From positions 3,434 to 67,433 of the forward strand of contig DATDQT010000124.1 of NCBI GenBank assembly GCA_035292085.1: a DNA stretch of 64,000 bases, given 5' to 3'. The stretch comes from a bacterium. Lineage in GTDB: Bacteria; Sysuimicrobiota; Sysuimicrobiia; Sysuimicrobiales; Kaftiobacteriaceae. Within the stretch, counting starts at the first letter, position 1. Each line of letters opens with the position of its first letter. The notes under the pieces are model-generated. The model had not been told where the DNA came from, did no database searches, and was given only the letters and a program-made list of their open reading frames with translations. A program made the translations under genes and the position numbers. Shown piece after piece: positions 5,969 through 44,190 of the stretch.

Positions 5969-7006
5969 CTACTTCGCGCGGGTGGGTTCGCCGGTCGGTT
6001 TAATGCGGAGGAAGAACGCCTCCAGCGCCAGCCGGGGGTGTACGTTGCGGCGCAGCGCGTCTTTGGCAACCTGCACGGCCAGGATGCGGTCGTTGAGCTG
6101 TGCCGGATCGATCGACGCGGCGAGCGACGCGATCGCATCCTTCCGGTCGAGGTTCACCAGCAGCGCGTCGTCGGGAGTTTCTCGCCAGACGAGCAGGTCG
6201 CGGTACCAGAACAGCGCGATGTCCAGCATCTCGGGCAGGTTTTTTTTGTCCTTCGCCAGTTCCTCGGCCGCATCGAGCCGGGCGAGGAGATCGGGCCGCT
6301 CGAACCACACCAGCAGGTCCAGCACCCGCTCGCGCAGCGCCAGCGCGGCCTCCGACGTCGCCCACGTCACGGCGCGCCCCAGCTGACCTCCGGATAATGA
6401 CCCCAGGAAGCGGGCCTGGCCGGGCGGCACACCGTGGCGCTCGATCAGCGCTTTCTCGATCAGCGGCAGCGGGATCAATGAGAAGCGCACGAGCTGGCAG
6501 CGCGATACCACGGTCGGCAGCATCGGCACGGTCGACTCGGCGATGAGGATGATGACCACCTGCGGCGGTGGTTCTTCGAGCACCTTGAGCATACTGCTGG
6601 CGGCATCTCTGTCCATCCGGTCGGCGTTCACCAGGATGTAGACTTTCGATCCACCTTCGACCGGCGGGTATACGACCTGACGGCGCAGTTCCCGGATCTG
6701 GTTGATGCCAATGAAGGTTTTGGTCGTATCGTCCGGATCCAGGAGCAGCCCGCGCTCCACGTCGACGAGCCGGACGTCGGGATGCTGGCCTTTGAGAACG
6801 AGCCGGCAGCCGCGGCACTCGCCGCAGGCATCCTCATCGACCGGCCGCTCGCAGTTGAGCAGCTGCGCGAACGCCCTGGCGGCCTCGAGGCGGCCCACCC
6901 CCGGCGGTCCGACGAAGAGGTAGGCGTGCGCGACGTGCTTCGCCCGCACCGCTGAGCGCAGGAGCAGGACGGCATGATCCTGGTTGACGAGATCCCTAAA
7001 CGCCAT
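5969..7006 (-). CDS. holB: DNA polymerase III subunit delta'
   Basis: HAYLFVGPPGVGR Walker-like motif, 345 aa, downstream of tmk-darA as in Bacillus. Confidence 0.85.
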   Translation of the reverse strand: MAFRDLVNQDHAVLLLRSAVRAKHVAHAYLFVGPPGVGRLEAARAFAQLLNCERPVDEDACGECRGCRLVLKGQHPDVRLVDVERGLLLDPDDTTKTFIGINQIRELRRQVVYPPVEGGSKVYILVNADRMDRDAASSMLKVLEEPPPQVVIILIAESTVPMLPTVVSRCQLVRFSLIPLPLIEKALIERHGVPPGQARFLGSLSGGQLGRAVTWATSEAALALRERVLDLLVWFERPDLLARLDAAEELAKDKKNLPEMLDIALFWYRDLLVWRETPDDALLVNLDRKDAIASLAASIDPAQLNDRILAVQVAKDALRRNVHPRLALEAFFLRIKPTGEPTRAK

Positions 7007-7015: not shown

Positions 7016-7354
7016 TCATATGCGCTCCATTCGCTCGATGGAGAGGACGAAGACGATCGCGCCGCCCACTTCCACCTTCACCGGATAGGTCACGTACGAA
7101 TCCACCGGTTCGATGACCGCCGGCATCGGGCTGACCAACTGTTCGCGGCGCTGGCACACCCGCTGGATGGTCGCCACGACCTGATCGACCTGACGGTCTT
7201 CGACGCCGGTGAGGATCGTCGCATTCCCTTCGCGCAGGAAGCCGCCGGTGCTGGCGAGGATCGTGGCCTGGGTGCCGTCCTCGGTGAGGGCATCGATCAA
7301 CCGGGCCGAATCCTTTTCCTGCACGATGGCTAGGACGAGCTTGATGCCCGCCAC
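7016..7354 (-). CDS. darA: Cyclic-di-AMP receptor, PII-like (YaaQ/DarA family)
   Basis: 112 aa: IKLVLAIVQEKD...ILASTGGFLREGNATILTGV. Positioned between tmk and holB. GTG start overlaps the tmk 3' end by 25 nt. Confidence 0.8.
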   Translation of the reverse strand: MAGIKLVLAIVQEKDSARLIDALTEDGTQATILASTGGFLREGNATILTGVEDRQVDQVVATIQRVCQRREQLVSPMPAVIEPVDSYVTYPVKVEVGGAIVFVLSIERMERI

Positions 7355-7992
7355 CCCCTCGCCCGCAGGAACTCGTCGACGATCCGGACGATGTCGCCGT
7401 GCACCGCGCGCTGTGCGCGCGACGCATCGATCACGCGTACGCGGTGCGGTTCTTCTTGCGCAATCGAAAGGAATCCTTCCCTGACGCGCTGCTGGAAGGC
7501 GATGCCTTCCTGTTCCAGACGGTCGCCGGTGCCGCGCTGGCCTTCCTTTCCTTCGGCCGCCTGCGCACGGCCCAGCCCGACGCCGGGATCGATATCCAGC
7601 AGCAGGGTGAGGTCCGGCTGCAGCCCCTGCGTCGCCACCGCGTTCACCATCCGGACGAGGTCGACGCCCAGGCCCCGCGCATATCCCTGGTAGGCGAGGG
7701 ACGAATCCACAAATCGTTCCGACACCACGATGCGGCCGGCCCGCAGCGCCGGGTCGACGATCTCCGACACAAACTGCGCCCGCGACGCCGCGAACAGCAG
7801 CATCTCGGTCTGCGCGCTCATCGCGGCATCGCCCAGCAGGATCCGGCGGATCTGCTCGCCGACCACCGTGCCGCCGGGCTCACGCGAGTAGAGGACATCG
7901 GCGGCGCCGCGCAGGTACTCGCTGAGCAGGCGCGCCTGCGTCGTTTTCCCCGACCCGTCGGGGCCTTCGATGGTGATGAAGAGACCGCGCAT
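7330..7992 (-). CDS. tmk: Thymidylate kinase
   Basis: [20 protein letters not shown]-loop. ATGA overlap with the upstream gene. Confidence 0.9.
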   Translation of the reverse strand: MRGLFITIEGPDGSGKTTQARLLSEYLRGAADVLYSREPGGTVVGEQIRRILLGDAAMSAQTEMLLFAASRAQFVSEIVDPALRAGRIVVSERFVDSSLAYQGYARGLGVDLVRMVNAVATQGLQPDLTLLLDIDPGVGLGRAQAAEGKEGQRGTGDRLEQEGIAFQQRVREGFLSIAQEEPHRVRVIDASRAQRAVHGDIVRIVDEFLRARGWRASSSS

Positions 7993-9530
7993 CAGCGCGG
8001 GAAGACGACGACGCGGCGGAAGGGCTCTTCGCCCCGGCTCTCTGACGCCAGGCCGTAGCGCTGGATGAGCTGGTGCTGGAGCCGGCGGACGTAGGAGTTC
8101 TGCGGAGAGAGTTCGACCGGCTGGGTGGACTTGAGGGCCTCGGAGATCGCTTCTTCGACCTCGCGCAGCGCCAGTTCCTGGTCGTCTTCGCCTTCCACTT
8201 CAAAGATGCTGCGGAGGAAGGCCTGGATCTGGCTGACCGTGTTGCTCTTGAGGATGTGCATCGGCTTGCCGCGGGCGGCGGCCTCGCGGAGTTTCTTGGG
8301 CTGGCGGCGCTCCTGCGACTTCAGCGTCAGCACGATGTCGGCGTCGACCAGATTCTCGGCGACGTAGGCCGGCACGCGCAGTTCCTTGATCGCCCGCTCG
8401 AGGCGGTTGCGGCTGACGGCGTACGGATAGATGCGGGCGATGCGCCGGCCCGGCCGTTCCGCATCCTCCGACGGCGCCGGCGCCAGCGGCCCCTGCGCGG
8501 CCCACGCCGCGGCCTTGGGCGGCGGCGCTTCGATCTCCACTTCACCGGCGGCGGTGCGGATGCGGGTCTCCGGCCGCGGCACCACCCCGCGGAGGAAGCG
8601 GTCCACCACCGTCGCGACGTCGTGGTGGACGGCCAGGCGGTCCTTCTCCACGATCTCGATGACGACGTCGAACGTCGGGGGGGCCTTGCGCTCGAGCACC
8701 GTCTTCTGGGTGCCGCGCCGGCGCGCTTCCTCATCGGACAGGGTGACCGCCTGGATGCCGCCGACGAGGTCGGACAGCGTCGGATTCTGCAGCAGGTTGT
8801 CCAGCGAGTTGCCGTGCGCGGTGGCGATCAACTGCACGCCGCGTTCGGCGATCGTGCGCGCCGCCAGCGCTTCGGCTTCGGTGCCGATCTCATCGATGAC
8901 GATCACTTCCGGCATGTGGTTTTCGACCGCCTCGATCATCACGGCGTGCTGCAGCTCCGGATGCTGGACCTGCATGCGCCGGGCCCCGCCGATCCCCGGG
9001 TGCGGGATGTCGCCGTCGCCGGCGATCTCATTGGACGTGTCGACGACGACCACGCGCTTGTTGAACTCGTCGGCCAGCACGCGGGCGGACTCGCGCAGCA
9101 GCGTGGTCTTCCCGACGCCCGGCCGGCCCAGCAGCAAAATCGACTGCCCGGATTCGATGACGTCGCGGACGATGTCGACCGTCCCGACGACGGCACGGCC
9201 CACGCGGCAGGTCAGCCCGATCACTTCACCCTGGCGGTTGCGGATCGCGGAGATGCGGTGCAGCGTCCGCTCGATCCCCGCGCGGTTGTCCTTGCCGAAC
9301 GCCCCGACCCGCGTGGTGACGAACCGGATTTCGTCCGGCCCCACGTAGCCGTCGTTGAGGTAGACGACCCGGCCGGGAAACCGCGCCTCCGGGCGCCGGC
9401 CCAAGTCGAGCACAATCTCGAGCAGCGCTTCCAGGTCGGGCTGCGTCGTCAGGTCCTCCCGGAGATGCCCGGGGAGGACGTTGAGCAGCAGATCCAGGTT
9501 GTCGGTGATTTGAATCTGTCGTGGCACCAC
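7992..9530 (-). CDS. AAA ATPase with C-terminal R3H nucleic-acid-binding domain (Ycf45/SpoIIIAA-like)
   Basis: Walker [12 protein letters not shown], Walker [11 protein letters not shown]-terminal R3H-like [32 protein letters not shown]. Start set at GTG 9530, 9 nt after GGTGGAGGG. The ORF-track extension to 9962 overlaps the rlmI-like gene. Confidence 0.75.
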
Positions 9531-9603
9531 GAGTGGCTTCCCTCCACCTATGCTGCGGTCAGGGAGCGCGGCCAGGTTACCCTCGGTGCGGTGAGAGACT
9601 GGG

Positions 9604-9637
9604 CGAAACGAAATGAGGGGAACCGGGCGGCTCCCCT
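9604..9637 (-). terminator. Terminator-like hairpin inside the 5' leader of the Ycf45-like operon
   Basis: On the minus strand, AGGGGAGCCGCCCGGUUCCCCU is followed by CAUUUCGUUUCG, about 75 nt upstream of the start codon. Confidence 0.35.
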
Positions 9638-9764
9638 GCCGTCGCAACTGTGCCTCGCGGGATCGGTTGTGTGAATCGATCCGGTAGTGACGGATGTCAG
9701 TTCGCGCGCGACCCGGAGCGCGTCGGTGTGGCCATTGGAATGGGTCCGCGCATGTCCTACCCGT

Positions 9765-9773
9765 ACTATACCA
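9765..9773 (-). promoter_or_regulatory. Candidate extended -10 promoter (TGgTATAGT)
   Basis: Minus-strand TGGTATAGT sits directly after the rlmI-like stop and about 235 nt upstream of the 9530 start. I found no convincing -35. Confidence 0.4.
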
Positions 9774-9781
9774 CGCATGAT

Positions 9782-10951
9782 TCAGCCTACCTCTACCACC
9801 AGACAACTCAGGTACCGCGTCTCCGGCATCGCCGGATGCACCGGATGGTCGCGCGCCTGTCCCCGCGACTCGATCAGCCGCACGGCGCGCCGTGCATCGG
9901 CAGCCGCGGCGCCGACAATCTGCTGCAGCAGCGCGTCGCCCACGTGATAGGAGCACGAGCACGTCAGGAGGATGCCACCGGGCCGCAGCAGCTTCAGGGC
10001 GCGCAGGTTGAGTTCTTTGTACCCCGCGCTGGCCCGTTCCACCGCCTCCTTCGTCGGCGCGAACGGCGGCGGGTCGAGGATCACCACGTCGTACGACGCC
10101 TTCTCCGTGACCAGCCGGCGCAGTTCGTCAAAGGCATTGGCCTCGACAAACTCGCAGACCGAGTCCACGCCGTTGAGCGCCGCGTTGGCCCGTGCCAGAT
10201 GCAGCGCATCCGCTGAGCTGTCGATGCCGGTGACGCGGCGCGCCCCGGCCAGCGCGGCGTGGACGGCGAACCCGCCCGTGTAGCAGAACACGTCGAGGAC
10301 CTCGGCATCCCGCACGTACGGCGCGAGGGCCGTCCGGTTCTCCCGCTGGTCGAGGTAAAACCCGGTCTTCTGGCCGGCGGCGACGTCGACAGAGAAGCGG
10401 GCGGGCTCCTGAATCTCGATGACTGGATCTGCCGTCCCGCGCAGCCACCCACGACGGGGATCCAATCCTTCGAGACGGCGTACGGTGGCGTCGTTGCGCT
10501 CATAGATCGCCTGGGGGTGCACGAGGTCCATCAGCAGGTCGGCCAGCATCTCCTTCCGCCGGTCCATCCCCAGGGCCAGTGTCTGGAGGACCAGCACCTC
10601 CCCATACCGGTCGACGATCAGACCAGGCAAGAAGTCGCCCTCGCTATAGATGAGGCGATAGGCGGTCGTACCGTGAACGAATCGCTGCCGGTAGGTCACG
10701 GCGCTGCCTATCCGGCGGCGCCAGAAGGCGTCGTCGATGGGCTCGGGCTGGGTGGTCAGCGCGCGGACGGCAAGGCTGGAGGCGGGGTTGATGAACCCGC
10801 GGCCAAGCCATTTGCCGCGCAGGGTCCGGATGTCGACGATCCCCCCGTCTTCGGGCTTCCCTTCGAGGCGGGCGATCTCGCCACTGAAGATCCACAGGTA
10901 GCCCGCCGTGATGCGGGCGTCTTTGTCGGGTTTGAGGAAGACGGTTGGCAA
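9782..10951 (-). CDS. rlmI: Class I SAM-dependent rRNA (cytosine-C5) methyltransferase, RlmI/YwbD-like with PUA domain
   Basis: 389 aa. N-terminus [26 protein letters not shown] motif DVFCYTGGF, catalytic region VILDPPPFA. Confidence 0.75.
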
Positions 10952-10959
10952 GAAGATCG

Positions 10960-12228
10960 CTAGAACAGCGTGGTCTGCGCGGGCTCCTCGACTCTCTTCG
11001 ACGGCTCGCCCGGACGTTCCGGGGGAACCTCGCCCTCGCCGAAGATGTGGATCTCGCCGTAGGTCCCGTCGTAGCCGGGCTTGATCTCCACGCGGCCCTC
11101 ACGCACACGAGCCACCCCCTCGACGATTTTCGGCGGAGCATGTTTGGCGAGTTCGTCCAGCGGCAGGTCGAGCAGGATGGCAAACTCCCCGCCCAGCCGG
11201 GCACAGAGTTTGAAATATTCCTCGCGGACGCCGCCGGTGCCGGGCTGCGCGCCCATTGCTTCGGCGATGATCTCCTCCAGGGGGATGAGGTTGCGGTACG
11301 GGACCGCCCCGGCCGGCACGTAGCCGTCCTCCCGATCGGCCAGGTCTTCCACGCGGTGCATCACGCCAACCGTCAGCGGGCGCTTGCAGACCGGGCAGCG
11401 GTCGCCCAGCGCCTTGCTCTCCTTCGGCGTGAGCCGGGTGTTGCAGTTGCGGTGGCCGTCGTAGTGGTACTTTCCTTCTTCCGGAAAGAACTCAACCGTG
11501 TAGAGGAACTTGCTGGTGTCTTTCTCGCGCAGAATCCGCATCAGTTCGAAGTAGTCGGGCTCGGCTTCGAAGACGTTCGCTTCCCGGCCCAGCTTCGCGG
11601 GTGAGTGAGCGTCGGAATTGCTGACCAGCATCACCCGGTCCAGCTGCGACAACCGCCAGTTCATCGGCGGATCGCTGCTCAACCCGGTCTCGACCGCGGC
11701 GATGTGGCGCAGCTGGTCCCCGAAGCATTCCTGCAGCGAATCGAAGCCGGAATTGGACCCGAACAGGCTGAACCACGGCGTCCACGCGTGCGCGGGGACA
11801 ATCATGCAGTCGGGAGAGACCTCCATGACGTACTCGACGAGCTTGCTCGACGGCAGGGTCAGCGTCGGCCGGCCGTCGGCCATGAGCGAGCCGAACCGGC
11901 CGAGCACGGCATTGATGCGTTCGACGACCTCCAGCGACGGGGCGAGGATGATGTTGTGGATCTTGCGCAGACGGCCGCCCTGCGGGTAGATGTTGCTGAC
12001 CTCCACGGTCAGCATGAAGTGGATGCCGCCGAAGGTGTAGAGGCCCCGGTCGTTCGGTTTGAGTTTGAGCTTCAGTTCGCGGAACCAGATGGGATGGGTG
12101 AAGTCGCCGGTGCCGACGACGGTGATGCCCTTGATCTTGCACCACCGCGCCATGTTCTCCACGTCCATCTCCCGGCTCGTTGCCCTGCTGTACTTGGAGT
12201 GGAGGTGGACGTCGGCGATGACACGCAT
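10960..12228 (-). CDS. Endonuclease Q-like PHP-domain nuclease with zinc ribbon (TIGR00375-type)
   Basis: DVHLHSKYSRATS, PAHAWTPW, SNSDAHSPAKLGREANVF, GKYHYDGH, CPVCKRPLTVGVMHRVEDL, GYDGTYGEIHIF. These blocks match the archaeal EndoQ sequence as I recall it. Confidence 0.75.
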   Translation of the reverse strand: MRVIADVHLHSKYSRATSREMDVENMARWCKIKGITVVGTGDFTHPIWFRELKLKLKPNDRGLYTFGGIHFMLTVEVSNIYPQGGRLRKIHNIILAPSLEVVERINAVLGRFGSLMADGRPTLTLPSSKLVEYVMEVSPDCMIVPAHAWTPWFSLFGSNSGFDSLQECFGDQLRHIAAVETGLSSDPPMNWRLSQLDRVMLVSNSDAHSPAKLGREANVFEAEPDYFELMRILREKDTSKFLYTVEFFPEEGKYHYDGHRNCNTRLTPKESKALGDRCPVCKRPLTVGVMHRVEDLADREDGYVPAGAVPYRNLIPLEEIIAEAMGAQPGTGGVREEYFKLCARLGGEFAILLDLPLDELAKHAPPKIVEGVARVREGRVEIKPGYDGTYGEIHIFGEGEVPPERPGEPSKRVEEPAQTTLF

Positions 12229-12240
12229 GGAGAGAGTTTC

Positions 12241-12315
12241 GGCGGTAAGGGGGGTGGGGCCTTTTCCCTGACTGCACTACACAGGGAACCCTTTGGTCCC
12301 ACCCCCCTTACCGCC
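12241..12315 (+). repeat. Family A hairpin element A1
   Basis: 18-bp perfect arms GGCGGTAAGGGGGGTGGG / CCCACCCCCCTTACCGCC flank GCC + 33-nt apical module TTTTCCCTGACTGCACTACACAGGGAACCCTTT + GGT. Confidence 0.9.
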
Positions 12316-12336
12316 TTCATGATGGTTGGATTTTTT

Positions 12337-12415
12337 GGTGGGAGGGGCGGGGCGGAGCCTCTCCCCGAAGGCCACTTCACAGGGACCCGTCAGGCTCCGC
12401 CCCGCCCCTCCCACC
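12337..12415 (+). repeat. Family A hairpin element A2
   Basis: 23-bp perfect arms GGTGGGAGGGGCGGGGCGGAGCC / GGCTCCGCCCCGCCCCTCCCACC flank the 33-nt module TCTCCCCGAAGGCCACTTCACAGGGACCCGTCA. Confidence 0.9.
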
Positions 12416-13663
12416 CCCAAGGAGACCATCCGTCCAGAGAGACTGAAGTCCGACAATCGCCAGCCTAAGCGTCATCTTGGTCAGGGGCCAAGCGGAGCGA
12501 CGGTGGAGGGCCTGGCGGAGCACCGGAACCAGCAGGCGCGACTGGTAGGCCGTATCCCCATGGACCTCGAGCGTCTGCCGTACCTCGTCGACGTTCGCCA
12601 GCGCGGCGACCACCGCATTGAGGTCCACATCGCTCATCCGGTTCAAAACAGTACGCACCATGGACGTGAACCGCAGTTCCCGCCCAAATCGCCGGCGCCA
12701 CCGGCGCTCGTACTCGGTCAGCGCCGCACGGCGACCGCCGGCATAGGCCGCCGCGGCGCCCGCGGCCAGCTGTCCTCCGATCAAGGAAAAGTAGATCCCG
12801 CCTCCGCTGGTGGCCTTCACGTGACCGGCCGCGTCCCCGGCGACGATCATCCCGTCGGTCGTGCTGCGGTGGCGGCGGCTGATCACGGGGATCGGCCCGG
12901 CCAGTTTCTGTTCGATGACGGCGCGGCGGAGGCGGCGGGAGGCAACCGGGTGTTCGCGGATGAGACGCTCGAGATAGTAGAGCGGCGCCCGCGGCGCAAA
13001 TGCCGGGTCTACGCACAGCCCGACGCGTCCCCGGCCTGGCCCGATGGGCATCAGCCACGCAAAGAACCCGGGCGAGGACGACGTTCCCAGGTACACTTCG
13101 GGGCAGTCGTTACCGTCCAGGTCGACGCCGCTCATCTGGTACTGCAGCCCCATGACCGACCGACGGGGCAAATCCAGTCCCAGGGTGCGCGGCAGGACGG
13201 GCCTGGCCCCCTCGGCATCGATGACTACCCGGGCCGTGGCCGCGTAGGACCGCCCCGCGCGTTCTCCGGTGACCCGGATCGTTCCGTTCAGCCGTTCCGC
13301 GGCGCGGAGGCGAGTCCCCACCACGAGTTCGGCGCCCTCCTCCTGTGCCTGGACTGCCAGCCAGCGGTCGAACACGCCGCGGTCGACGACGTGCGAATCC
13401 GGCCGGGCGCGGCGGACTCGGGCGACGGCCCCGTTCGGCGCATAGAACCTGCCGGCCTGGAGCGTGTTCAGGATCAGGTGCGACGGGAGATTGAATTCGC
13501 GAAATGCGTGGAGCTGGAGTTTCCCCGAACAGTGGATGGGCGTCCCGACTTCGCGGTGCTCCTCGATCAATGCGGTCCGCAGTCCGAGCCGGGCGGCGGA
13601 CAGAGCAGCCATGCCCCCGGCGGGGCCGGCGCCGACCACGATGACATCATAATTCGGTGGCAT
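12377..13663 (-). CDS. Geranylgeranyl reductase family FAD-dependent oxidoreductase
   Basis: ATG at 13663 after AGAGGAGA. MPPNYDVIVVGAGPAGG dinucleotide-binding motif. The last 13 codons are encoded by hairpin element A2. Confidence 0.75.
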   Translation of the reverse strand: MPPNYDVIVVGAGPAGGMAALSAARLGLRTALIEEHREVGTPIHCSGKLQLHAFREFNLPSHLILNTLQAGRFYAPNGAVARVRRARPDSHVVDRGVFDRWLAVQAQEEGAELVVGTRLRAAERLNGTIRVTGERAGRSYAATARVVIDAEGARPVLPRTLGLDLPRRSVMGLQYQMSGVDLDGNDCPEVYLGTSSSPGFFAWLMPIGPGRGRVGLCVDPAFAPRAPLYYLERLIREHPVASRRLRRAVIEQKLAGPIPVISRRHRSTTDGMIVAGDAAGHVKATSGGGIYFSLIGGQLAAGAAAAYAGGRRAALTEYERRWRRRFGRELRFTSMVRTVLNRMSDVDLNAVVAALANVDEVRQTLEVHGDTAYQSRLLVPVLRQALHRRSAWPLTKMTLRLAIVGLQSLWTDGLLGGGRGGAEPDGSL

Positions 13664-24856: not shown

Positions 24857-25816
24857 ATGAACAAACGGATGAAGTTAGTCGCACTGACGGTGGTGGTGAT
24901 TCTGGTCGGCGCCGCCGCCGCCGTCGCCATCACCGTGGGCATGAAGCGCGGCACGGCCATTGCCGCCACGGTCAACGGGGAGACGATCTACGCGGACGAT
25001 CTCAACAAGGAGATCGAGGCCGTGGCCAAGCAGTACGGCATCAACCTCGAGGGCGCCGATGGCGCCAAGCAGCGGGCGGAGATTTCGAAGATCCTGCTCG
25101 ACCAGCTCATCGACCAGCGGTTGATCATGCAGGAAGCGCGCCGACAGAACGTGGTGGCGACCGACGTCCAGATCACGGCGCAGATTGGCGAGATCAAGAA
25201 GAACTTCCCGACGGAGGCGGAGTTCGAGGCCGCCCTGTCCCAGCGCGGCCTGACGATGGCCGCGCTGCGGGATCGCCTGCGCACGACGATCACCGTCCAG
25301 AACCTCGTCGCCAAGCTGCCCGTGCCCGCCCCCAGCGACGCGGCCATCGAGAAGTACTTCCGCGACAACCGCAAGGAGTTCGATCAGCCCGACCAGATCC
25401 GGGTCCGCCACATCCTCGTCGACAGCGAACCGAAGGCACGGCTGGTCCTGGTGCGCCTGGAACGCGGAGAGAAGTTCGAGGATCTGGCCGCTCAGATGTC
25501 CAGCGATCCTGGAAGCAAGGATGCCGGCGGCGACCTCGGATTCGTCAGCCGCGGGTCGCTGGTCCCGGAGTTCGAGAAGGTGGCCTTCGCGCTGAAGCCG
25601 GGCCAGCGGTCCGGGATCGTGAAGACCCAGTACGGCTTCCACATCATTCAGGTGCTGGAGGCCAAACCCGGAAAAGCCGCCGCGCTCACACCGGACGTGC
25701 GCGCGCAGATCCGCAACAAACTGCTCGGCGCCGAGCGGGAGAAAGCGTTCGGCGAGTGGCTCAAGAAGGTCAAGGCCCAGGCGACGATCAAGCAGTTCAA
25801 CCTGACAACGCAGTAG
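24857..25816 (+). CDS. Parvulin-type peptidyl-prolyl isomerase (PrsA/SurA-like), membrane-anchored
   Basis: N-terminal TM segment. RVRHILV...GDLGFVSRGSLVPEFEKVAF...GFHIIQV. Confidence 0.8.
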   Translation: MNKRMKLVALTVVVILVGAAAAVAITVGMKRGTAIAATVNGETIYADDLNKEIEAVAKQYGINLEGADGAKQRAEISKILLDQLIDQRLIMQEARRQNVVATDVQITAQIGEIKKNFPTEAEFEAALSQRGLTMAALRDRLRTTITVQNLVAKLPVPAPSDAAIEKYFRDNRKEFDQPDQIRVRHILVDSEPKARLVLVRLERGEKFEDLAAQMSSDPGSKDAGGDLGFVSRGSLVPEFEKVAFALKPGQRSGIVKTQYGFHIIQVLEAKPGKAAALTPDVRAQIRNKLLGAEREKAFGEWLKKVKAQATIKQFNLTTQ

Positions 25817-27983: not shown

Positions 27984-28013
27984 TTGACACCGCTCGTAGA
28001 GCCGCCTTAGAAT
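27984..28013 (+). promoter_or_regulatory. Sigma-70-type promoter TTGACA-N18-TAGAAT
   Basis: TTGACA at 27984-27989 and TAGAAT at 28008-28013, upstream of the S1-domain gene. Confidence 0.6.
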
Positions 28014-28053: not shown

Positions 28054-28431
28054 ATGAGTGTCGATATCGGTACGATCGTCGAAGGTAAGGTCGTCAAGAT
28101 CACCAACTACGGCGCGTTCGTCGAGCTTGCCGATGGCAAGAGCGGCCTCGTCCACATCTCCGAGATCGCCGACATCTACGTCAAGGACGTTCGCGACTAC
28201 CTGAAAGAGCAGGAAACCGTCAAGGTCAAAGTCCTCGGCCTCAATGACAGGGGGAAGCTCGACCTGTCCGTCAAGCAAGCCCTCTCTCCCGAAGAGCGGG
28301 TCGCCCGCGCCCGCGAGAAGAAGACGTTCGAAGAGAAGTTGAAGACCTTTATGAAGGAAAGCGAAGAACGCCTGCTCGACCTCAAACGGAACACCGAAGC
28401 CAAACGCGGGGGCGGAAAAAAGCGAAGATAG
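28054..28431 (+). CDS. S1 RNA-binding domain protein (YabR-like)
   Basis: GTIVEGKVVKITNYGAFVELADGKSGLVHISEIAD, lysine/arginine-rich tail. Lies next to the divIC-like gene as in Bacillus. Confidence 0.8.
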   Translation: MSVDIGTIVEGKVVKITNYGAFVELADGKSGLVHISEIADIYVKDVRDYLKEQETVKVKVLGLNDRGKLDLSVKQALSPEERVARAREKKTFEEKLKTFMKESEERLLDLKRNTEAKRGGGKKRR

Positions 28432-28508
28432 GGGGACGAGGAGGGCGGGAGCCTTTTCCCCGAGACCACTTCACGGGGACCCCTTTGGCTCCCGCCCTCC
28501 TCGTCCCC
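28432..28508 (+). repeat. Family A hairpin element A3
   Basis: 22-bp perfect arms GGGGACGAGGAGGGCGGGAGCC / GGCTCCCGCCCTCCTCGTCCCC flank the 33-nt module TTTTCCCCGAGACCACTTCACGGGGACCCCTTT. It fills the gap between two convergent stop codons exactly. Confidence 0.9.
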
Positions 28509-28849
28509 TATCCCTCGCCGAGAAGTTCCACCACGTCCTCGAACGTCCGCCACACGATGTCGTCGCTCTCCAGCATCCGCGACGTTTCCGCGATGCCTTC
28601 TTTCGACGACAGTTCGTCCAGGTGTTCTTCCATCCGCTGCATCCGCAGCCTGAGCTGGTGGAGCACCGCCCCGGCCGGCAGCGCGGGCAGCAGCGCTTTC
28701 ATCCGGTCCAGCGCGTCCCGCTCGACGGCCCGGGCCAGGCGATCCATCTCGATCGCCTCCATCTTCGAATAGGACACCAGCCCGCGGCGCCTCTCGACCG
28801 CATCACCGACAATCTTGCGGATGTCGCTGACGAGCCTGGTTTCGTCCAC
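28508..28849 (-). CDS. Hypothetical helical protein (113 aa)
   Basis: GTG-initiated ORF 20 nt downstream of the ABC exporter pair. I recognise no motif. Confidence 0.4.
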   Translation of the reverse strand: MDETRLVSDIRKIVGDAVERRRGLVSYSKMEAIEMDRLARAVERDALDRMKALLPALPAGAVLHQLRLRMQRMEEHLDELSSKEGIAETSRMLESDDIVWRTFEDVVELLGEG

Positions 28850-28869: not shown

Positions 28870-30741
28870 TCATCCCGGGATGCGCACCTCCTGGTCCCGG
28901 TACTGCAGCTGGTACAGCTTGGCGTAGATGCCGCCTTTGGCCAGCAGGTCGCGGTGCGTCCCCTCTTCCACGAGATGCCCCTTGTGGAGCACGACGATCC
29001 GGTCGACGTTCTGAATCGTCGACAGGCGGTGCGCGATGATGATCGAGGTCCGGCCGTGCATCACCCGGCTGAGGGCGTCCTGGATCAGGATCTCGGTCTC
29101 GGTGTCCACGCTGCTGGTCGCCTCATCCAGGACGAGGAGGATCTCCGGATTGTGGGAGAGGGCCCGGGCAAACGCAATCAGCTGCCGCTGCCCGGCCGAG
29201 AGGGTCGTCCCCCGTTCCACCACGTCGCTGGCGTAGCCTTTGGGCATGCGGTCGATGAAGCGGTGCGCGTTGACGAACTCCGCCGCGCGGCGGATCTCCT
29301 CGTCACTGATATCCTCGTTGCCCAGCCGGATGTTCGAGGCAATCGTGCCCGAAAACAGGAAGACGTCCTGGAGGACGAGTCCGACGTGGCGGCGCAGATC
29401 GCGCTGCGCGTACGCGCGTACGTCCACCCCGTCCACGAGCACCCGGCCGCGCTGCGGATCATAGAACCGCAGCAGCAGGTTGATGATCGACGTCTTGCCG
29501 GCGCCGGTGTGGCCGACGAACGCGACGCTCTCGCCCGCGGCGATGCGGAAGGACACGCCCTTGAGCACCCATTCATCGGTCCCCCGGGGCAGCGGAGGCT
29601 CCCCGTCGCGCGGCGCGGCCGCCGGGCCGCCGGCCGCCGGCGGGCCCCCGGTCGATGACGGGTACGCGAACCAGACGTCTTTGAACTCGATCTCGCCCCG
29701 CACGTGCGGCAGCGGCACCGGACCGGCCGGATCTTCAACGGTGACCGGCTCGTCGAGGATGCGGAAAATCCGCTCCGAACTGGCCATGGCCGCCTGCAGG
29801 ATGTTGTACTTCTCGGCGAGGTCTTGAATCGGCCGCCAGAACCGTTCCGTGTACTGGATGGCCGCGACCAATACCCCGATGGTCACCACCCCCCGCACGA
29901 CCTGCCCGCCGGCGTACCAGATCAGCAGCGCGATGGCCACCGCCGAGATGAACCCGACGGAGGGGAAGAACAGCGCGAAGTACCGGATCGCCTGCTGGTT
30001 GCTGTCCAGGTGGTCCCGGTTCAGGGCGTCGAATTTCCCGAAATTGCGCCGGCGGCGGTTGAACAGCTGGGCGACGCCCATGCCCATGATGTTCTCGTTC
30101 AGGTAGGCGTTGATGCGCGCGATGCGGACGCGCACGGCCCGGTATGATTCGCGGGACCGCGCCGCGAACCAGGCGGTCATCGCGACCAGGGCGGGCAGCA
30201 CCGCGAAGGCAACCAGGGTGAGCCGCCAGTCCAGCAGCAGCATCGCGATGATGATGCCGACGAGCATGAACACGTCGCCGAATACGGTCACCACGCCCGA
30301 CGTCACCATCTCGTACAGCGTGTCGACGTCGTTCGTAATGCGGGTCATCAGCCGGCCGACCGGATTGCCGGCGAAGAAGGCCACCGACAGCCGCTGCAGG
30401 TGGCCGAACATCTGCATCCGCAGATCGTACATCACGCTCTGGCCGACGATCTGCGTGATGTAGTTCTGCCCGTAGCGGATCGCCGCCGCGGCCACCAGCG
30501 TGAGCAGGTACCAGGCGGCAATGCGCGCGAGGCCGGCCATGTCCCCGACCCCGATGTACCGGTCGATCGCGACCTTGACGAAGTACGGACCGGCCAGTTC
30601 AGCGCCGGCCGCGAGCAGCAGCAGCACCACCGAGAGGATGACCGGCCGACGGTACGGCCGCAGGTACCCCAGCAGCCGCCGCATCAGGCGGGCGTCGTAG
30701 GCTTTCCCGAGGATTTCGTCTTCCTGAAAGTGCGTGCTCAT
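28870..30741 (-). CDS. ABC exporter, fused permease/ATPase (heterodimer partner 2)
   Basis: 623 aa. Six TM segments plus Walker A GHTGAGKTS, signature LSAGQRQ, Walker B LLVLDEATS. Confidence 0.9.
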   Translation of the reverse strand: MSTHFQEDEILGKAYDARLMRRLLGYLRPYRRPVILSVVLLLLAAGAELAGPYFVKVAIDRYIGVGDMAGLARIAAWYLLTLVAAAAIRYGQNYITQIVGQSVMYDLRMQMFGHLQRLSVAFFAGNPVGRLMTRITNDVDTLYEMVTSGVVTVFGDVFMLVGIIIAMLLLDWRLTLVAFAVLPALVAMTAWFAARSRESYRAVRVRIARINAYLNENIMGMGVAQLFNRRRRNFGKFDALNRDHLDSNQQAIRYFALFFPSVGFISAVAIALLIWYAGGQVVRGVVTIGVLVAAIQYTERFWRPIQDLAEKYNILQAAMASSERIFRILDEPVTVEDPAGPVPLPHVRGEIEFKDVWFAYPSSTGGPPAAGGPAAAPRDGEPPLPRGTDEWVLKGVSFRIAAGESVAFVGHTGAGKTSIINLLLRFYDPQRGRVLVDGVDVRAYAQRDLRRHVGLVLQDVFLFSGTIASNIRLGNEDISDEEIRRAAEFVNAHRFIDRMPKGYASDVVERGTTLSAGQRQLIAFARALSHNPEILLVLDEATSSVDTETEILIQDALSRVMHGRTSIIIAHRLSTIQNVDRIVVLHKGHLVEEGTHRDLLAKGGIYAKLYQLQYRDQEVRIPG

Positions 30742-33410: not shown

Positions 33411-34213
33411 CAGGAGGGCCTGGCCAAACCGGGGTCCGGGGTCCGGGGTCCGGGGTCCGACATAACTTCGGGGAGCGCCACGATTGACACGTCAGCTTCC
33501 CGCAACGCTGTGCGCACCGCCTGCGCGATTGCGACGGCGCCGGGGGTGTCGCTGTGGATGCACAGCGTGTCGGGCCGGAGGTTCAGCTCCGTGCCATCGA
33601 CCGCGGTGGTCGTGCCGTCGCGGACCATGCGCACGGCGCGCACGGCGGCGTAGTGCGCGTCGGTGATCACCGCGCCAGGCAGGTCGCGCGAGACGAGTGT
33701 TCCGGCCGCGGTGTACGCCCGATCGATGAACGCCTCGCGCGCGACGCGGAGGCCCATGTCCTCGAGGACTCGCGCGTGAGGAGATCCCGCAAGGACGACG
33801 ACGATCAACGAGGAATCCACATCGACGACCGCAGCGCCGATCGCTTCGGTCAAGGCACGATCCGACATCGCCTGATTGTAGAGGGCGCCGTGCGGCTTGA
33901 CGTGGCGCAGCGCAGCGCCGGCCTCCGACGCGAGGGTTGCAAGCGCCTGGATCTGCACGGCCAGGTCGGCCCGTACCTGGTCCGGCGCCGCGCGGACGGC
34001 CCGCCTGCCGAACCCTTCGCGGTCCGGGTAGGACGGATGGGCGCCGAGGCTCACGCCGTGAGTCAGGGCCAGCCGGATGCTCTCGCGCATCGTCTGCTCA
34101 TCACCGGCATGGCCGCCGCAGGCAATGCTGGCAGACGTCATCAGCGGCATGAGTTGAGCGTCCACCGCGGATCCCTCACCCATGTCGCAGTTGAGATCGA
34201 TGACCGCCATCAT
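33410..34213 (-). CDS. pxpA: 5-oxoprolinase subunit A (LamB/YcsF family)
   Basis: IDLNCDMGEG N-terminal motif, 267 aa. Confidence 0.85.
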   Translation of the reverse strand: MMAVIDLNCDMGEGSAVDAQLMPLMTSASIACGGHAGDEQTMRESIRLALTHGVSLGAHPSYPDREGFGRRAVRAAPDQVRADLAVQIQALATLASEAGAALRHVKPHGALYNQAMSDRALTEAIGAAVVDVDSSLIVVVLAGSPHARVLEDMGLRVAREAFIDRAYTAAGTLVSRDLPGAVITDAHYAAVRAVRMVRDGTTTAVDGTELNLRPDTLCIHSDTPGAVAIAQAVRTALREADVSIVALPEVMSDPGPRTPDPGLARPS

Positions 34214-34521
34214 CAGCGACGAGTCAGACGGTCCTGAGGGAATGTTTCGAGATAGCGTTTAGCCGCCTCCAGCCGCTTGAACAGGCGGGTCTCCCATTCG
34301 GGTGACACGAGGTCTGCTTCCGGCATGAACAGCAGCGCGCGGGCGCTGCCGAGCCGCAGCCCGTACTCCACGCCGGCAAACGGTTCGGCCATGTACCGGA
34401 CGGAAGGTTTGTCCAGCACCAGGCGTGCGTCGACGCGGCGGAGGACCTGCTCCAGTTTCCGGATGGCGTCGGCTTCGGAAATCACAAAGACAATGTTACT
34501 ACGGTACACTGGAAGTCGCAT
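34213..34521 (-). CDS. Hypothetical protein (102 aa), first gene of the pxpA operon
   Basis: ATG at 34521. Its stop overlaps the pxpA start (ATGA). I recognise no motif. Confidence 0.45.
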   Translation of the reverse strand: MRLPVYRSNIVFVISEADAIRKLEQVLRRVDARLVLDKPSVRYMAEPFAGVEYGLRLGSARALLFMPEADLVSPEWETRLFKRLEAAKRYLETFPQDRLTRR

Positions 34522-34544
34522 GATTCCGGAGTCCGGAGGCTGGG

Positions 34545-35105
34545 GTGGACTGGCGAGAATACTACGAGCAGGGTCTTCCCTACACAGAGTTTCTCGCGCG
34601 CTACGGCACCGACGAGCACCGGCGGCGGTGGCAGCGCATGTACGAACAGGTGACGCTCACCGCGGCGCCGCGCGAGATGCTGGCCGGGTTTCCCCGGCAG
34701 ATGCATCTGCTGTGCCTGGCCGGCACGTGGTGCGGAGACTGCGTGCGCGACTGCCCAATCCTGCAGCATATCGCGGAGGCCTCGCCGGTGATCAACCTGC
34801 GCTTTCTGGACCGGGATGACAACCCGGATCTGCGCGACGCATTACGCATCAACCAGGGCCACCGGATTCCCGTCGTCGTGTTCCTCAGTGAGGACTTCGC
34901 GGAGTGCGCCCGCTACGGCGAACGCACGCTGGCGACGTACCGGAAGATGGCGGCCGAACGCCTCGGTCCGGCGTGCCCTACCGGGATCATCCCGCCGGGC
35001 GAGGACTACATCGACGAGATGGTCGCGGACTGGCTGCGCGAGGTGGAGCGGGTGCAGTTGATGCTGCGGCTGTCGCCGCGGCTGAGGGAACGGCACGGAG
35101 ACTAA
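34545..35105 (+). CDS. Thioredoxin-fold protein (WCGDC active site)
   Basis: GTG 34545, 6 nt after GGAGG. LAGTWCGDCVRDCP. Confidence 0.7.
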   Translation: MDWREYYEQGLPYTEFLARYGTDEHRRRWQRMYEQVTLTAAPREMLAGFPRQMHLLCLAGTWCGDCVRDCPILQHIAEASPVINLRFLDRDDNPDLRDALRINQGHRIPVVVFLSEDFAECARYGERTLATYRKMAAERLGPACPTGIIPPGEDYIDEMVADWLREVERVQLMLRLSPRLRERHGD

Positions 35106-35134
35106 TGGTAGCCCAAGCGAGACGATGTTCGAAC
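35106..35134. repeat. tRNA-3'-end-like fragment plus left direct repeat of the islet
   Basis: TGGTAGCCCAAGCGA matches 13 of 15 nt of the tRNA-Glu 3' end (TGGTAGCCCCAGCGG at 36971-36985). GACGATGTTCGAAC (35121-35134) is repeated exactly at 36955-36968. Confidence 0.8.
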
Positions 35135-35211
35135 TATTTAAGAAGCTTCGGGCCGTCTTCCGAGAGGGATACTACCATTCTCCGGCGGCTTAGCTAAGAA
35201 CGGTCCGCAGT

Positions 35212-35616
35212 CTAGGATTTGCGGCTGAGGGATTCCAGCTTCAAGCCCACTATGCGCTCGTAGTGCTTGCGGTTCTCAGAAAGTAGGGTCAAGCCGTGGC
35301 GTAGCGCCGTCGAGGCAATAGCAAGATCGAATGGGTCCAAGGGTTGGCCAGAAGTTAGGAGCCGCGCGTTCTCTTGGCCAAACCGTTCCGACACTTCTTC
35401 AGTGAATGGAAGAGTTGTGACCCCTCGAAGGAATCGCCGGAGTCCTTCCGCTGCCTGTTCCGGGTTCTTTGACCGATGAACTCCCGTAAAGAGCTCAGCC
35501 AGCGTGATCGTGCTGATTGCGAGACCTTCACCGCGTAAGGCCCTGATGCGTTCTGCAACGTCTCTACGGCCCCGCAGCGAGAAAACCGCCCAGTCTGTAT
35601 CCAGCAGATACCGCAT
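35212..35616 (-). CDS. vapC: PIN-domain ribonuclease toxin
   Basis: MRYLLDTDWAVFSL, 134 aa. One-nt overlap with the upstream antitoxin gene. Confidence 0.85.
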   Translation of the reverse strand: MRYLLDTDWAVFSLRGRRDVAERIRALRGEGLAISTITLAELFTGVHRSKNPEQAAEGLRRFLRGVTTLPFTEEVSERFGQENARLLTSGQPLDPFDLAIASTALRHGLTLLSENRKHYERIVGLKLESLSRKS

Positions 35617-35852
35617 TAAAGCTCGACGGCCGGCCGGGTGCTCCGTTTGCGCAATTCGTAGATCTCGTCAACAAAGTCTTCTGACACGAGATCCTTCCAA
35701 CTACCAATGGAGGAAAGAAATGCGGCATCGTCCTTCTCGCTGGTCTTCTCGGGCATGGGAATATCGACCACCTCGTCCTCAGGGAGATCCACCGGCTCGA
35801 GTGGCTCAAAGACACCCTTCTTGTACTTGGCTCTGATGACTTTGCCCAACAT
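35616..35852 (-). CDS. Antitoxin (DUF104/AF2212-like N-terminus) of the VapBC pair
   Basis: ATG 35852 after GAGGTGA. MLGKVIRAKYKKGVFEPLEPVDLPEDEVV. Confidence 0.7.
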   Translation of the reverse strand: MLGKVIRAKYKKGVFEPLEPVDLPEDEVVDIPMPEKTSEKDDAAFLSSIGSWKDLVSEDFVDEIYELRKRSTRPAVEL

Positions 35853-35905
35853 CGTCACCTCGGTCTCACCATACGGTACGTGTCCGTGAAGGTCAATGGA
35901 ACCTC

Positions 35906-36745
35906 TCAAGAGCCCGGAATTTCATAGTCTTTTGCCCTCTCCACTGCATATCCGACAAACTGCAACGTTTGTTGATAAATCGCGTGATCAGCCGGCTGAT
36001 GCGTAGAAATCGAGGTGTCCTGGCGCTCTTTCCAGCAATAATCTATCAACGGTATCCATTGCGGGTCGAGATTGGATTTGGCCCATTTGAGGCCCGCCAG
36101 CTTCGAGCTCACTTTTCCTTCCGACAAGTCATGCAGCATGCGGCAGAAATTCAGCACCAGGTATGATTGATAAAACCTGTTCTTGTACCGCCCCGGATCT
36201 TGCAGCAACTCCTGTCCCCAGCCGACCAGCGTATTCCCTATTTCTTTGCGTAACTCATCGGCGGGTACAGGGTCAATGAGAGTAGCCGGGTTTGGCCCCA
36301 GTACCGTAACGCCCATCTCTCTCACGGTCCAGCGGACCACCAGCGTATTGTCGTGGTCTGACCGTTGAATGGTGGGGCTGCCGTTATCAAAGTACCAGAG
36401 CTCTTCGCTTTGTGCCGGAACCCCGGCGTCCGTGTACGGTGACGACGGTTGCTGGAGCACGGGCGTGGGAAAGAAGGAATACTCGAGCCGCTTGACCCAG
36501 AGATTATCCTGATCGTACATGCGGCGATGCGTGGCCTGCACCTCCACGACTTCGCGTTCAGACAGGTCTTCTCTCGTGACAACAATGAAGTCGACATCGC
36601 TGGTGAGATCGAAATCGCCGATTGCCAAAGATCCTTGCAGATATTCGCCCACAAATTCAGTGCCGAGTACCCTCTGCATACTTTTCGCGTGTTCTTCCAG
36701 TACAGCATCCAGTTTCGAGTATGGTGTGAGTGATCCATTGCTCAT
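35906..36745 (-). CDS. Nucleotidyltransferase with C-terminal DUF4111-like domain (ANT/AadA-like architecture)
   Basis: YLQGSLAIGDFDLTSDVDFIVV NTase motif. Start is uncertain: ATG 36745 is chosen, and the ORF is open to 36856. Confidence 0.65.
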   Translation of the reverse strand: MSNGSLTPYSKLDAVLEEHAKSMQRVLGTEFVGEYLQGSLAIGDFDLTSDVDFIVVTREDLSEREVVEVQATHRRMYDQDNLWVKRLEYSFFPTPVLQQPSSPYTDAGVPAQSEELWYFDNGSPTIQRSDHDNTLVVRWTVREMGVTVLGPNPATLIDPVPADELRKEIGNTLVGWGQELLQDPGRYKNRFYQSYLVLNFCRMLHDLSEGKVSSKLAGLKWAKSNLDPQWIPLIDYCWKERQDTSISTHQPADHAIYQQTLQFVGYAVERAKDYEIPGS

Positions 36746-36954
36746 GGGTTTTCTAGGTTTCGCGGCTTCCTTCACGCCTTGATCATGATAACAAAAGGGC
36801 TTGCCACCGTTCATGCACGGGCCCACACCCGTTCGTTGATTGGAACGCTCGGACAAGATGGTTAGTCTCGGAGAGATAGTGGTCGGAAAGAATACAGAAT
36901 GTGGAATATTGACTGAGAAAAGTTCGAAGGAGCAAAGAAAGGTCGGGCAAGTGG

Positions 36955-36968
36955 GACGATGTTCGAAC
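36955..36968. repeat. Right direct repeat of the islet (GACGATGTTCGAAC)
   Basis: Exact 14-nt copy of 35121-35134, 2 nt from the tRNA-Glu CCA end. Confidence 0.85.
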
Positions 36969-36970
36969 GC

Positions 36971-37048
36971 TGGTAGCCCCAGCGGGATTCGAACCCGCGT
37001 CTTGGCCTTGAGAGGGCCATGTCCTAGACCGGGCTAGACGATGGGGCC
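36971..37048 (-). tRNA. tRNA-Glu (anticodon CUC), CCA encoded
   Basis: Hand-folded cloverleaf: acceptor GGCCCCA/TGGGGCT, D arm GTCT-AGCCCGGTCTA-GGAC, anticodon arm TGGCC-CTCTCAA-GGCCA, T arm GCGGG-TTCGAAT-CCCGC, discriminator A, then CCA. Confidence 0.85.
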
Positions 37049-37059
37049 GCGGCCAACTC

Positions 37060-37088
37060 ATTATACTGACCTCATCGCTGCCACGCAA
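37060..37088 (-). promoter_or_regulatory. Promoter of tRNA-Glu (TTGCGT-N17-TATAAT)
   Basis: On the minus strand, TTGCGT (37088-37083) and TATAAT (37065-37060). The -10 ends 11 nt before the tRNA 5' end. Confidence 0.6.
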
Positions 37089-37123
37089 AGTCTGGAACCT
37101 ACGGCGCTCAGGACGAACAGAAA

Positions 37124-37432
37124 CTACTGCTTTGTGGCTTCCCGGATGTGCTCGCGCTCGACTGCCTTGCTGAGTTTCCGAAAGGCCTCGTTCAGCGTCT
37201 GGCGCGCCTGCTCGCGGTCTTTGAGGCTCTCCACTGGGATGAATGCCTCGTGATGAAGAGTGCCGCGGACGAACTGAACCCGCAACTGGCCAGGCTCCGC
37301 CTCAGAAAGCTCGCCGATCGCAATGTCATCCCGGCCCAGTCCACTCAGGTGCTCGGTGAGCAGCCTCCGGTAGTTCTGCAGATCCGCATCCTTCACGGCG
37401 ATCCCCCCTTTCCCGCCGTCGTTTTTCCCCAC
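37124..37432 (-). CDS. Hypothetical protein (102 aa)
   Basis: GTG-initiated ORF with a plausible helical C-terminus. I recognise no motif, and an antisense ORF of similar size also exists. Confidence 0.35.
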   Translation of the reverse strand: MGKNDGGKGGIAVKDADLQNYRRLLTEHLSGLGRDDIAIGELSEAEPGQLRVQFVRGTLHHEAFIPVESLKDREQARQTLNEAFRKLSKAVEREHIREATKQ

Positions 37433-37455
37433 AACAGGAAGTCGACTCCGAAATC

Positions 37456-41799: not shown

Positions 41800-41848
41800 C
41801 CCGCGAGTGGTCACCGGCGCATCGCCCCGTCCCAAGTCGCCAGCCGCT

Positions 41849-44078: not shown

Positions 44079-44175
44079 GTCATTGCGAGGACCGCGAGCC
44101 CGCGGAGCGGGCGCGGCGGGCCGAAGCAATCTCAGTCCTGGGATTGCTTCGGCCCCTTCGGGGCCTCGCAATGAC
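44079..44175. repeat. Family B full-length composite palindrome (97 bp)
   Basis: Outer arms GTCATTGCGAGG / CCTCGCAATGAC (12 bp). Inner arms CCGAAGCAATC / GATTGCTTCGG (11 bp) around a 10-nt loop. GC-rich variable internal segments. Confidence 0.9.
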
Positions 44176-44190
44176 GAAACGGAACGGTTG

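Follow-up and report, generated by a model that had tools for sequence, protein, structure and literature searches.

Three long GC-rich hairpins of one bacterial genome share their tips and differ in their stems, which raises the question of what kind of element they are and how they came to lie where they do. The hairpins, here called A1, A2 and A3, are found in a 64-kb stretch of DNA (64,000 nucleotides, hereafter the window), a housekeeping region of 67% GC from an uncultured soil or sediment bacterium; its proteins have their homologues in MAGs labelled Armatimonadota or 'Bacillati bacterium ANGP1'. The original prediction described them as homologous 33-nt modules enclosed by perfect but unrelated stems under selection, and offered as candidates a structured RNA, a hairpin-recognising mobility system of REP/RAYT or other type, or a protein-recognition hairpin. 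Its positions and sequences for A1, A2 and A3 are accurate (Table 1). We find that the three hairpins are copies of an undescribed hairpin repeat of 75-80 bases, family A, which was inserted at gene ends and then kept nearly unchanged. The unusual trait of this family is that the part shared between copies is the tip of the hairpin and not the stem.

Three hairpins with a common core

Each element consists of a G-rich arm of 21-24 bp, a conserved core of 31-33 nt with a 5-bp helix of its own, and a C-rich arm complementary to the first. The stem of A1 has 21 bp, of which 18 bp are perfect, and contains one G.T on the plus strand (A.C on the minus strand); if a 1-nt bulge is allowed, the stem of A3 extends to 28427-28512 and then includes both convergent stop codons. 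The core opens with a U-rich spacer of 3-4 nt and the helix CCCYG/CRGGG, which encloses a loop of 11-12 nt ending in CACTWCA; a 3' spacer of 7-8 nt, A(A/C)CC.T.., follows, and the whole is closed by GCC...GG(C/T). The length of exactly 33 nt given for the core holds for the three window copies, A2 arriving at it by another combination (5' spacer of 3 nt, loop of 12 nt), but not for the other members, where the core is 31-32 nt. The inner helix had been said to covary, and one pair does so (T-A in A1, C-G in A3), but A2 of the window has a C.A mismatch at this pair, which is C-G in other strains.

Table 1. Positions of the hairpins and of the features next to them in the window
Feature	Position	Strand	Details
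Spacer between A1 and ATG	12229..12240	-	12 nt; A1 to ATG (12228) of the endonuclease-Q-family gene
A1, complete hairpin	12241..12315		arms 12241-12261 / 12295-12315; model R1 78.1 bits
A1 core	12262..12294	+	TTTT / CCCTG (12266-70) / loop ACTGCACTACA / CAGGG (12282-86) / AACCCTTT
Spacer between A1 and A2	12316..12336		21 nt, TTCATGATGGTTGGATTTTTT; position 12335 polymorphic
A2, complete hairpin	12337..12415		arms 12337-12360 / 12392-12415, 24 bp perfect; R1 78.7 bits
A2 core	12360..12392	+	TCT / CCCCG / loop AAGGCCACTTCA / CAGGG / ACCCGTCA
End of reductase-like gene	12377..12418	-	last 13 codons and TGA (12377-12379); tail GGGRGGAEPDGSL, then stop
Promoter-like site	27984..28013	+	TTGACA-18-TAGAAT; 11/12 positions, a match to consensus only; upstream of the S1 gene
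TAG stop, S1-domain gene	28429..28431	+	directly abuts the 5' arm of A3
A3, complete hairpin	28432..28508		arms 28432-28453 / 28487-28508, 22 bp perfect; R1 82.5 bits
A3 core	28454..28486	+	TTTT / CCCCG / loop AGACCACTTCA / CGGGG / ACCCCTTT
TAG stop, convergent 113-aa gene	28508..28510	-	overlaps the last base of the 3' arm of A3

Folded as RNA, A1-A3 reach -59 to -70 kcal/mol (z -8.3 to -9.6); when either strand is considered the range is -55 to -72 kcal/mol (z -6.7 to -9.6), and none of 200 shuffles was as stable (0/200). A covariance model, R1, built from the window copies A1, A2 and A3 finds exactly these three in the window at 78-82 bits, with the best unrelated match at 16 bits, and a degenerate core pattern matches 3 times against 0.00 expected. 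The three copies are homologous, as had been predicted, and further members exist (L001, L009 and L051, below). At the gathering threshold, Rfam reported only tRNA in the window, the hairpins staying below the threshold of any family; a permissive search returned only generic miRNA-precursor models for them, at 13-40 bits against thresholds of 45-168. The same hairpins are present in more than 10 independent assemblies (JGI, ENA, Logan), with A3 identical in L003-L007 and L049.

The position of the G-rich arm, 5' on the plus strand in all three copies, had been pointed out. It is uninformative, since the 5' arm of a perfect palindrome is the same on both strands, and orientation can therefore be read from the core alone. 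The core has the same orientation on the plus strand in A1, A2 and A3. Relative to the adjacent gene it is sense in three cases, to the upstream gene at A3 (the S1 gene), L001 and L009, and antisense in two, to both flanking genes at A1 and A2.

The claim that the arms are unrelated holds only in part. Pairs of window arms are no more alike than composition-matched shuffled arms (p 0.26-0.47), and global identity is 57-79% for arms (shuffled baseline roughly 65%) and 67-91% for cores. However, all arms end in GCC...GG(C/T), and there is weak likeness across loci (A2 and L009, p = 0.012; A3 and L001, p = 0.027; A3 and L009, p = 0.04), none of it significant once corrected for 10 arm pairs; for A2 with L009 and A3 with L001 it may represent a weak sub-family likeness. 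The G content of the 5' arm is 52-70%, and the copies share an inner GCC/GGC, often GAGCC/GGCTC. This extreme G-richness and the common inner GCC/GAGCC speak for arms that move as part of the element and not for arms acquired at the target site. Pairs were counted on a hand-made structural alignment because whole-element MAFFT alignments misplaced the low-complexity arms. Across the copies we counted 5 stem imperfections, all of them single transitions (G.T or A.C); a strand preference deduced from wobble pairs was rejected, as the 5 imperfections are spread over both strands.

Collections of genomes (with the 3-nt-gap variant only), metagenomes and viral contigs were scanned with the core pattern, and plasmids were searched by blastn. 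The genome collection gave 1 true match, L001, located between nuoK and nuoL in the soil MAG SMAG_U194. The metagenome collection gave 25 matches, of which 1 is true: L009, on a sediment contig, 6 nt after the proS stop; the other 24 have no flanking stem and are chance matches. Neither the viral contigs (core pattern, 0) nor the plasmids (blastn, 0) yielded any. Both L001 and L009 have long G-rich/C-rich stems closing on GCC...GGC, and the contig of L009 may come from the same population as the window. A third member, the orthologue of A1 at 1470-1543 of L051, was found by synteny. R1, a model of the kind proposed with the original prediction, also recovers L009, L001 and L051 at 50-70 bits, none of which had been used to build it. 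In all the sequence reached there are 5 independent members, 3 of them within the 64 kb of the window. These numbers are probably too low, because contigs break inside the hairpins and because the scanned genome collection is without the source genome. Metagenome contigs often begin or end within A1, A2 or A3 (L035-L041, L049, L052 and L055), and the end of L038 is a fold-back artefact. For this little-known lineage, the hairpins matter in practice: they break metagenome assemblies and lead to spurious C-terminal extensions in gene calls.

Insertion at gene ends and conservation afterwards

A1 and A2 lie between two minus-strand genes, a geranylgeranyl-reductase-like gene upstream and an endonuclease-Q-family gene downstream. 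In a lineage of 80% identity (L053 and L054; MAG GCA_036004445.1) the stop and start codons of these genes are 2 nt apart (TAGCCATG) and there is no hairpin. In L051, from a lineage of 84% identity, a single hairpin is present; it is orthologous to A1, with which it shares the 5' arm unchanged, and A2 is absent. The window, L033 and L055 have A2, a spacer and A1. The presence of 0, 1 or 2 copies at the same junction across sister lineages shows that these are insertions. The gene ends bear the marks of these events. Where the element is missing, the reductase-like protein ends in ...GLSGRLNL; in L051 the reading frame enters the hairpin (tail ...LGGKGGGAEGFPV) and is closed by a TAG of the loop; and in the window the tail is encoded by an arm and half the loop of A2, with the TGA inside the A2 loop. 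The 12 nt between A1 and the downstream start codon resemble, as judged by eye, the old 3' end of the reductase-like gene in L053 (CTGAATCTCTAGCC). At this junction the final codons of the upstream gene thus gave way first to A1 and later to A2. Such tiny insertions remodel gene ends, giving a new C-terminus, donating a stop codon and splitting a translationally coupled pair.

Two other routes to this arrangement were rejected. That the core of A1 or A2 was inserted into a pre-existing terminator palindrome does not agree with the empty site of L053, TAGCCATG, which holds no palindrome, and that the arms were copied from the target flank does not agree with the L053 sequence upstream of the insertion point, which is unlike the A1 arm. 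At the same junction, L052 has an A1-type 5' arm, the first 7 nt of the loop, ATTAA, an A2-type arm and then the contig end. One possibility is the nesting of an A2-type element in the A1 loop, which would indicate self-targeting; another is a rearrangement.

A3, which lies between an S1-domain gene and a convergent gene of 113 aa, has a similar history. The two stop codons are 3-6 nt apart in the distant relatives L045-L047, compared with 76 nt in the window with A3, which was inserted between the two convergent stops. Together with the promoter-like site upstream, the S1 gene and A3 would form a compact unit of promoter, gene and hairpin. In the sister lineage L048 and in the mosaic contig L002, both arms are recognisable but imperfect and there is no core. 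These alleles indicate that the core can be lost and that the arms are then no longer complementary.

The divergent patch around A3 in L002 was considered as a case of homing-like co-conversion. We set this aside, as similar patches are found elsewhere (L004, L049): dense SNP patches of 75-150 bp occur at other sites in the population, and the core-less allele is that of the sister lineage (L048). The L002 patch is ordinary mosaicism or a strain-chimeric assembly. The patches show 11-22% differences in contigs otherwise 99.9-100% identical to the window, and are located, in window positions, at 25327-25400 and 29827-29974 (L004), 28642-28739 (L049) and 28416-28530 (L002). Either recombination with a divergent relative over very short tracts or strain-chimeric assembly accounts for them.

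To ask what happened after insertion, A1 of the window can be compared with its orthologue in L051. Over 75 nt there are 5 substitutions and 1 indel between the two (2/42 in the arms and 4/33 in the core). Divergence at third codon positions between the same sequences is 26% in the endonuclease-Q-family gene and 43% in the reductase-like gene, and 6/12 positions differ in the 12-nt spacer beside A1 (ungapped comparison). The conservation of A1, taken as a whole element, relative to this flanking divergence has P <= 9e-5. The selection or constraint that had been proposed is thus borne out, A1 orthologues being far more conserved than synonymous sites. In contrast, the description of the stems as freely varying does not hold, since 40/42 arm positions are the same in the A1 orthologues and the innermost pairs are common to all copies. 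The same 40/42 identity, at 26-43% synonymous-site divergence, led us to reject the possibility that the arms evolve fast by slippage of G runs. Among strains, variation is found at three sites in the A2 loop (12372, 12381 and 12389) and one in the spacer, while the stems are invariant. One of the A2 core polymorphisms breaks the inner helix, and these polymorphisms indicate that at least the A2 core is not tightly constrained.

A probable mobile palindromic repeat and its alternatives

Of the three candidates put forward originally, a hairpin mobility system fits best, because one junction has 0, 1 or 2 copies and another has empty sites; membership in the REP/RAYT group is not supported. The arms and the core arrived together, as whole elements, at sites previously without a palindrome. 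On balance we consider it probable, with moderate confidence, that family A is a mobile, REP/MITE-like palindrome that folds as RNA into a hairpin at the borders of genes. Owing to the perfect palindrome of the stem, RNA from either strand would fold into the same very stable hairpin. Its most likely role would be REP-like, as a 3'-end or intercistronic hairpin that blocks 3'-to-5' decay. It may also separate neighbouring transcription or translation units, and may pause or end transcription in an organism in which canonical terminators were not seen. The pairing of the arms is probably kept by selection on the hairpin, by template switching from arm to arm, or by both, and the conserved tip is probably a protein recognition site, for a copying enzyme or for a host factor.

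Several known systems resemble family A in part. REP, BIME and REPIN sequences of Proteobacteria, which are mobilised by RAYT, likewise consist of short, GC-rich palindromes scattered through intergenic DNA; they too typically follow a stop codon directly, separate convergent genes or sit within operons, often as tandem copies, and have no target duplication. Their transcripts also form stable hairpins, which shield the mRNA upstream of them, as those of family A may do. A REP is, however, 20-40 nt long with a conserved stem, and a REPIN has two conserved REP arms and a variable loop, whereas in family A the tip of 31-33 nt is conserved and the 21-24-bp arms differ. REPs and REPINs number tens to hundreds per genome, and the RAYT gene is usually flanked by REPs. 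No RAYT is present in the window, and the host of family A is a high-GC uncultured lineage. REP palindromes have a GTAG or CGTC tetranucleotide at one end (PMC3733652). This tag is absent from family A: the ends are GGCGG, GGTGG, GGGGA, GGGGG and GCCGG, with no conserved terminal tag, and the only TAG or GTAG near the elements are stop codons of upstream genes.

MITEs such as Correia, RUP and Nezha are also small non-autonomous hairpin-folding elements with terminal inverted repeats, and their presence/absence polymorphism between close relatives is matched at the reductase-like/endonuclease-Q and A3 sites. Unlike family A, in which the arms are the least conserved part, MITEs have conserved terminal repeats, bound by the transposase, and are flanked by target duplications; by eye, we saw no direct repeats flanking A1, A2, A3, L001 or L009. 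Rickettsia palindromic elements share with family A the habit of inserting at the ends of or within protein genes, where they are translated and change the protein, but they are unrelated in sequence, about 100-150 bp long, in frame within genes and conserved over their full length. The attC sites of integrons have conserved R''/L'' and L'/R' basal boxes, a variable centre and extrahelical bases; family A is the opposite, with a conserved centre, a variable base and perfect stems, and there is no integrase in the window. Family A is of the small palindromic repeat kind, but it departs from REP/REPIN and MITE elements in its stem and termini, in the tag and in target duplication. The known families are defined by conserved stems or termini, the parts read by their transposases. 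The conserved tip, with perfectly paired stems that are not shared, points to a different recognition logic or to a host factor that reads the loop.

Correction of quasipalindromes by template switching, a documented replication mechanism that homogenises the arms of inverted repeats and can invert their spacers (PMC7202029, PMC8604942, PMC5941160), copies one arm onto the other and would in this way keep the arms of family A perfect and could flip the core. The two orientations of the core could have arisen in this manner. Template switching is, however, a process of mutation rather than a family of elements, and it bears on how pairing is maintained, not on where the elements came from or how they spread.

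Some points count against the reading as a REP/MITE-like repeat with an RNA hairpin. Transcription, 3' ends and effects on stability are all deduced from DNA sequence, and copy number and arm diversity are poorly sampled (5 independent members). Both orientations of the core would be odd if the sequence of the loop matters in RNA, and a hairpin of -60 to -70 kcal/mol might do harm instead of good where it separates nuoK from nuoL or precedes a start codon by 12 nt. Recombination between lineages is also conceivable as the route of spread, given the short mosaic tracts in the population. The differing arms of paralogous copies may reflect either old, fully compensated divergence within sub-families or rewriting at the time of copying.

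Foremost among the alternatives, though in our view unlikely, is a selfish element that acts at the DNA level with no host function. Here, the hairpin extruded in single-stranded DNA would be acted on by an enzyme that is specific for hairpins and has its gene at another genomic site, for example a RAYT-like transposase of the HUH/Y1 type or a structure-specific nuclease or recombinase. This enzyme would recognise the tip and need the stem only to pair. Insertion polymorphism at two loci would be expected of such an element, as would a conserved core with differing arms, the tandem or nested arrangement of copies (A2 beside A1, and the A2-type arm after a broken A1-type loop in L052) and the lack of target duplication, which is typical of transposition of the IS200/IS605 or RAYT type. 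However, neutral decay is expected after insertion and A1 is strongly conserved. The known REP/RAYT systems conserve the stem and not the loop, and the GTAG/CGTC tag described for REPs (PMC3733652) is absent. Pfam scans of the about 50 window genes detected no transposase, reverse transcriptase, recombinase or integrase within the 64 kb; the co-occurring Y1 transposase that the original prediction suggested looking for (Y1/HUH, PF01797-type) was likewise not found in the window.

Somewhat less probable again is that the hairpins are bidirectional host terminators that work with no U-tract, their loop binding a termination factor; the copies would then be alike because of what they do and not because they moved. 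Intrinsic terminators, and the hairpins without a U-tract that are reported downstream of genes in high-GC Gram-positive bacteria, are similarly long, perfect and GC-rich, directly follow a stop and act symmetrically on convergent genes. A3 sits exactly between two convergent stops after a promoter-gene unit, L009 is 6 nt past the proS stop, and a palindrome gives the same hairpin in both directions. Canonical terminators are also not enriched in this region, with 9 terminator-like sites in the window against 8.5 expected in a scan that took loops of 3-8 nt only, outside which A1-A3 fall. As had been noted from the sequence, A1-A3 are not canonical intrinsic terminators and lack a U-tract by the usual criterion: no 8-nt stretch starting 0-2 nt after any A1-A3 stem has at least 5 T on either strand. 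The minus strand after A3 is U-rich (CUAUCUUCGCUUUUUU), with a U6 run that begins 10 nt past the stem. U-tract-less hairpins terminate poorly with the bacterial RNA polymerases tested. In addition, L001 lies between nuoK and nuoL, and A1 and A2 between co-oriented genes that are 2 nt apart in relatives, where a terminator would cut the operon, and relatives manage these junctions without any hairpin. A strong terminator role is disfavoured by these sites inside operons and by the missing U-tract; the shared 33-nt apical core shows common descent, and family A, unlike terminators, also occurs inside operons and has a demonstrable insertion history.

A further possibility, speculative and unlikely, is that family A represents a new type of mobile hairpin. 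Only the apical core would then be inherited, as a module for recognition or priming, and the arms would be remade or heavily rewritten at each copying. A half-element intermediate might, for example, acquire its second arm by snap-back synthesis on the first. If true, arm rewriting would cover three features at once: the perfect pairing of young copies, the differing arms of paralogues and the almost invariant arms of orthologues.

Far less likely than any of these is that the hairpins are independent structured small RNAs, either trans-acting or cis-regulatory (riboswitch, thermometer), with a functional loop. Their strong predicted structure, the one covarying pair of the inner helix and the conservation between orthologues would agree with such a role. 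Against it, the Rfam matches are limited to sub-threshold generic miRNA-hairpin models, none was found to have its own promoter, A2 is partly protein-coding, and the contexts (reductase-like, S1-domain, nuo and proS) are unrelated. Relative to the flanking genes the core runs in either direction, and it lies inside operons as well, which makes a free-standing structured RNA, one of the original candidates, improbable. Assembly artefacts or chance palindromes, as might be suspected from contigs that break at or inside the hairpins and from the fold-back end of L038, are refuted by the identical complete hairpins in many independent assemblies from three sources, by the 0/200 shuffles of equal stability and by the pattern expectation of 0.00.

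Other repeats and regions

A different hairpin is found at the junction orthologous to that of A3 in an intermediate lineage of 75-83% identity (L042 4663-4768, L043, L044 and L050). Its arms are built of 9-mer repeats (GTCTTCCCN) whose number varies, with one unit fewer in L044, around a 39-nt loop with CCCGACAC...GTGACGGGG. The occurrence of a different hairpin at the same convergent junction in relatives suggests that this site attracts hairpins repeatedly. Beside the S1 gene, L042 also has a contractile-tail-like cluster at 7253-11459 (phage sheath, T4 gp19-like tube, baseplate), where the window has DivIC and enolase genes.

The window contains other palindromic repeats. A second hairpin family is found at 41824-41891 and 50792-50860, with stems of 18-19 bp. 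It is the reverse of family A in that the stems are conserved and the loops are not: the arms are similar (GCCCCGTCCCAAGTCGCC vs ACCCCGTTCCAACCGACCA) and the loops, of 31-32 nt, are unrelated. One of the two sites is intergenic between two minus-strand genes and the other is close to the 5' end of an ORF for an MFS transporter. A third repeat, downstream of a LysM/NlpC-P60 gene, occurs at 44079-44176 in the window and at 6409-6438 and 10224-10293 in L009, and has an outer stem, CTGTCATTGCGAG/CTCGCAATGAC(A)G, around an inner hairpin, CCGAAGCAATCTCAG...CTGGGATTGCTTCGG. Between the cation-efflux and multicopper-oxidase genes, at 53958-54018, are two tandem 28-nt units (ATGTCAAGGGGTCAGACCCCGCAGTTTG) set 2 nt apart, each with the palindrome GGGGTC-A-GACCCC; this is possibly the operator of a metal regulator or another repeat. 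Finally, positions 34000-38000 form an island of lower GC (59-61% vs 67%), possibly an integrated or acquired segment, with genes for a PIN-domain protein (35212-35616), a protein with an aminoglycoside adenylyltransferase C-terminal domain (35906-36856) and tRNA-Glu(CTC) (36971-37048, minus strand).
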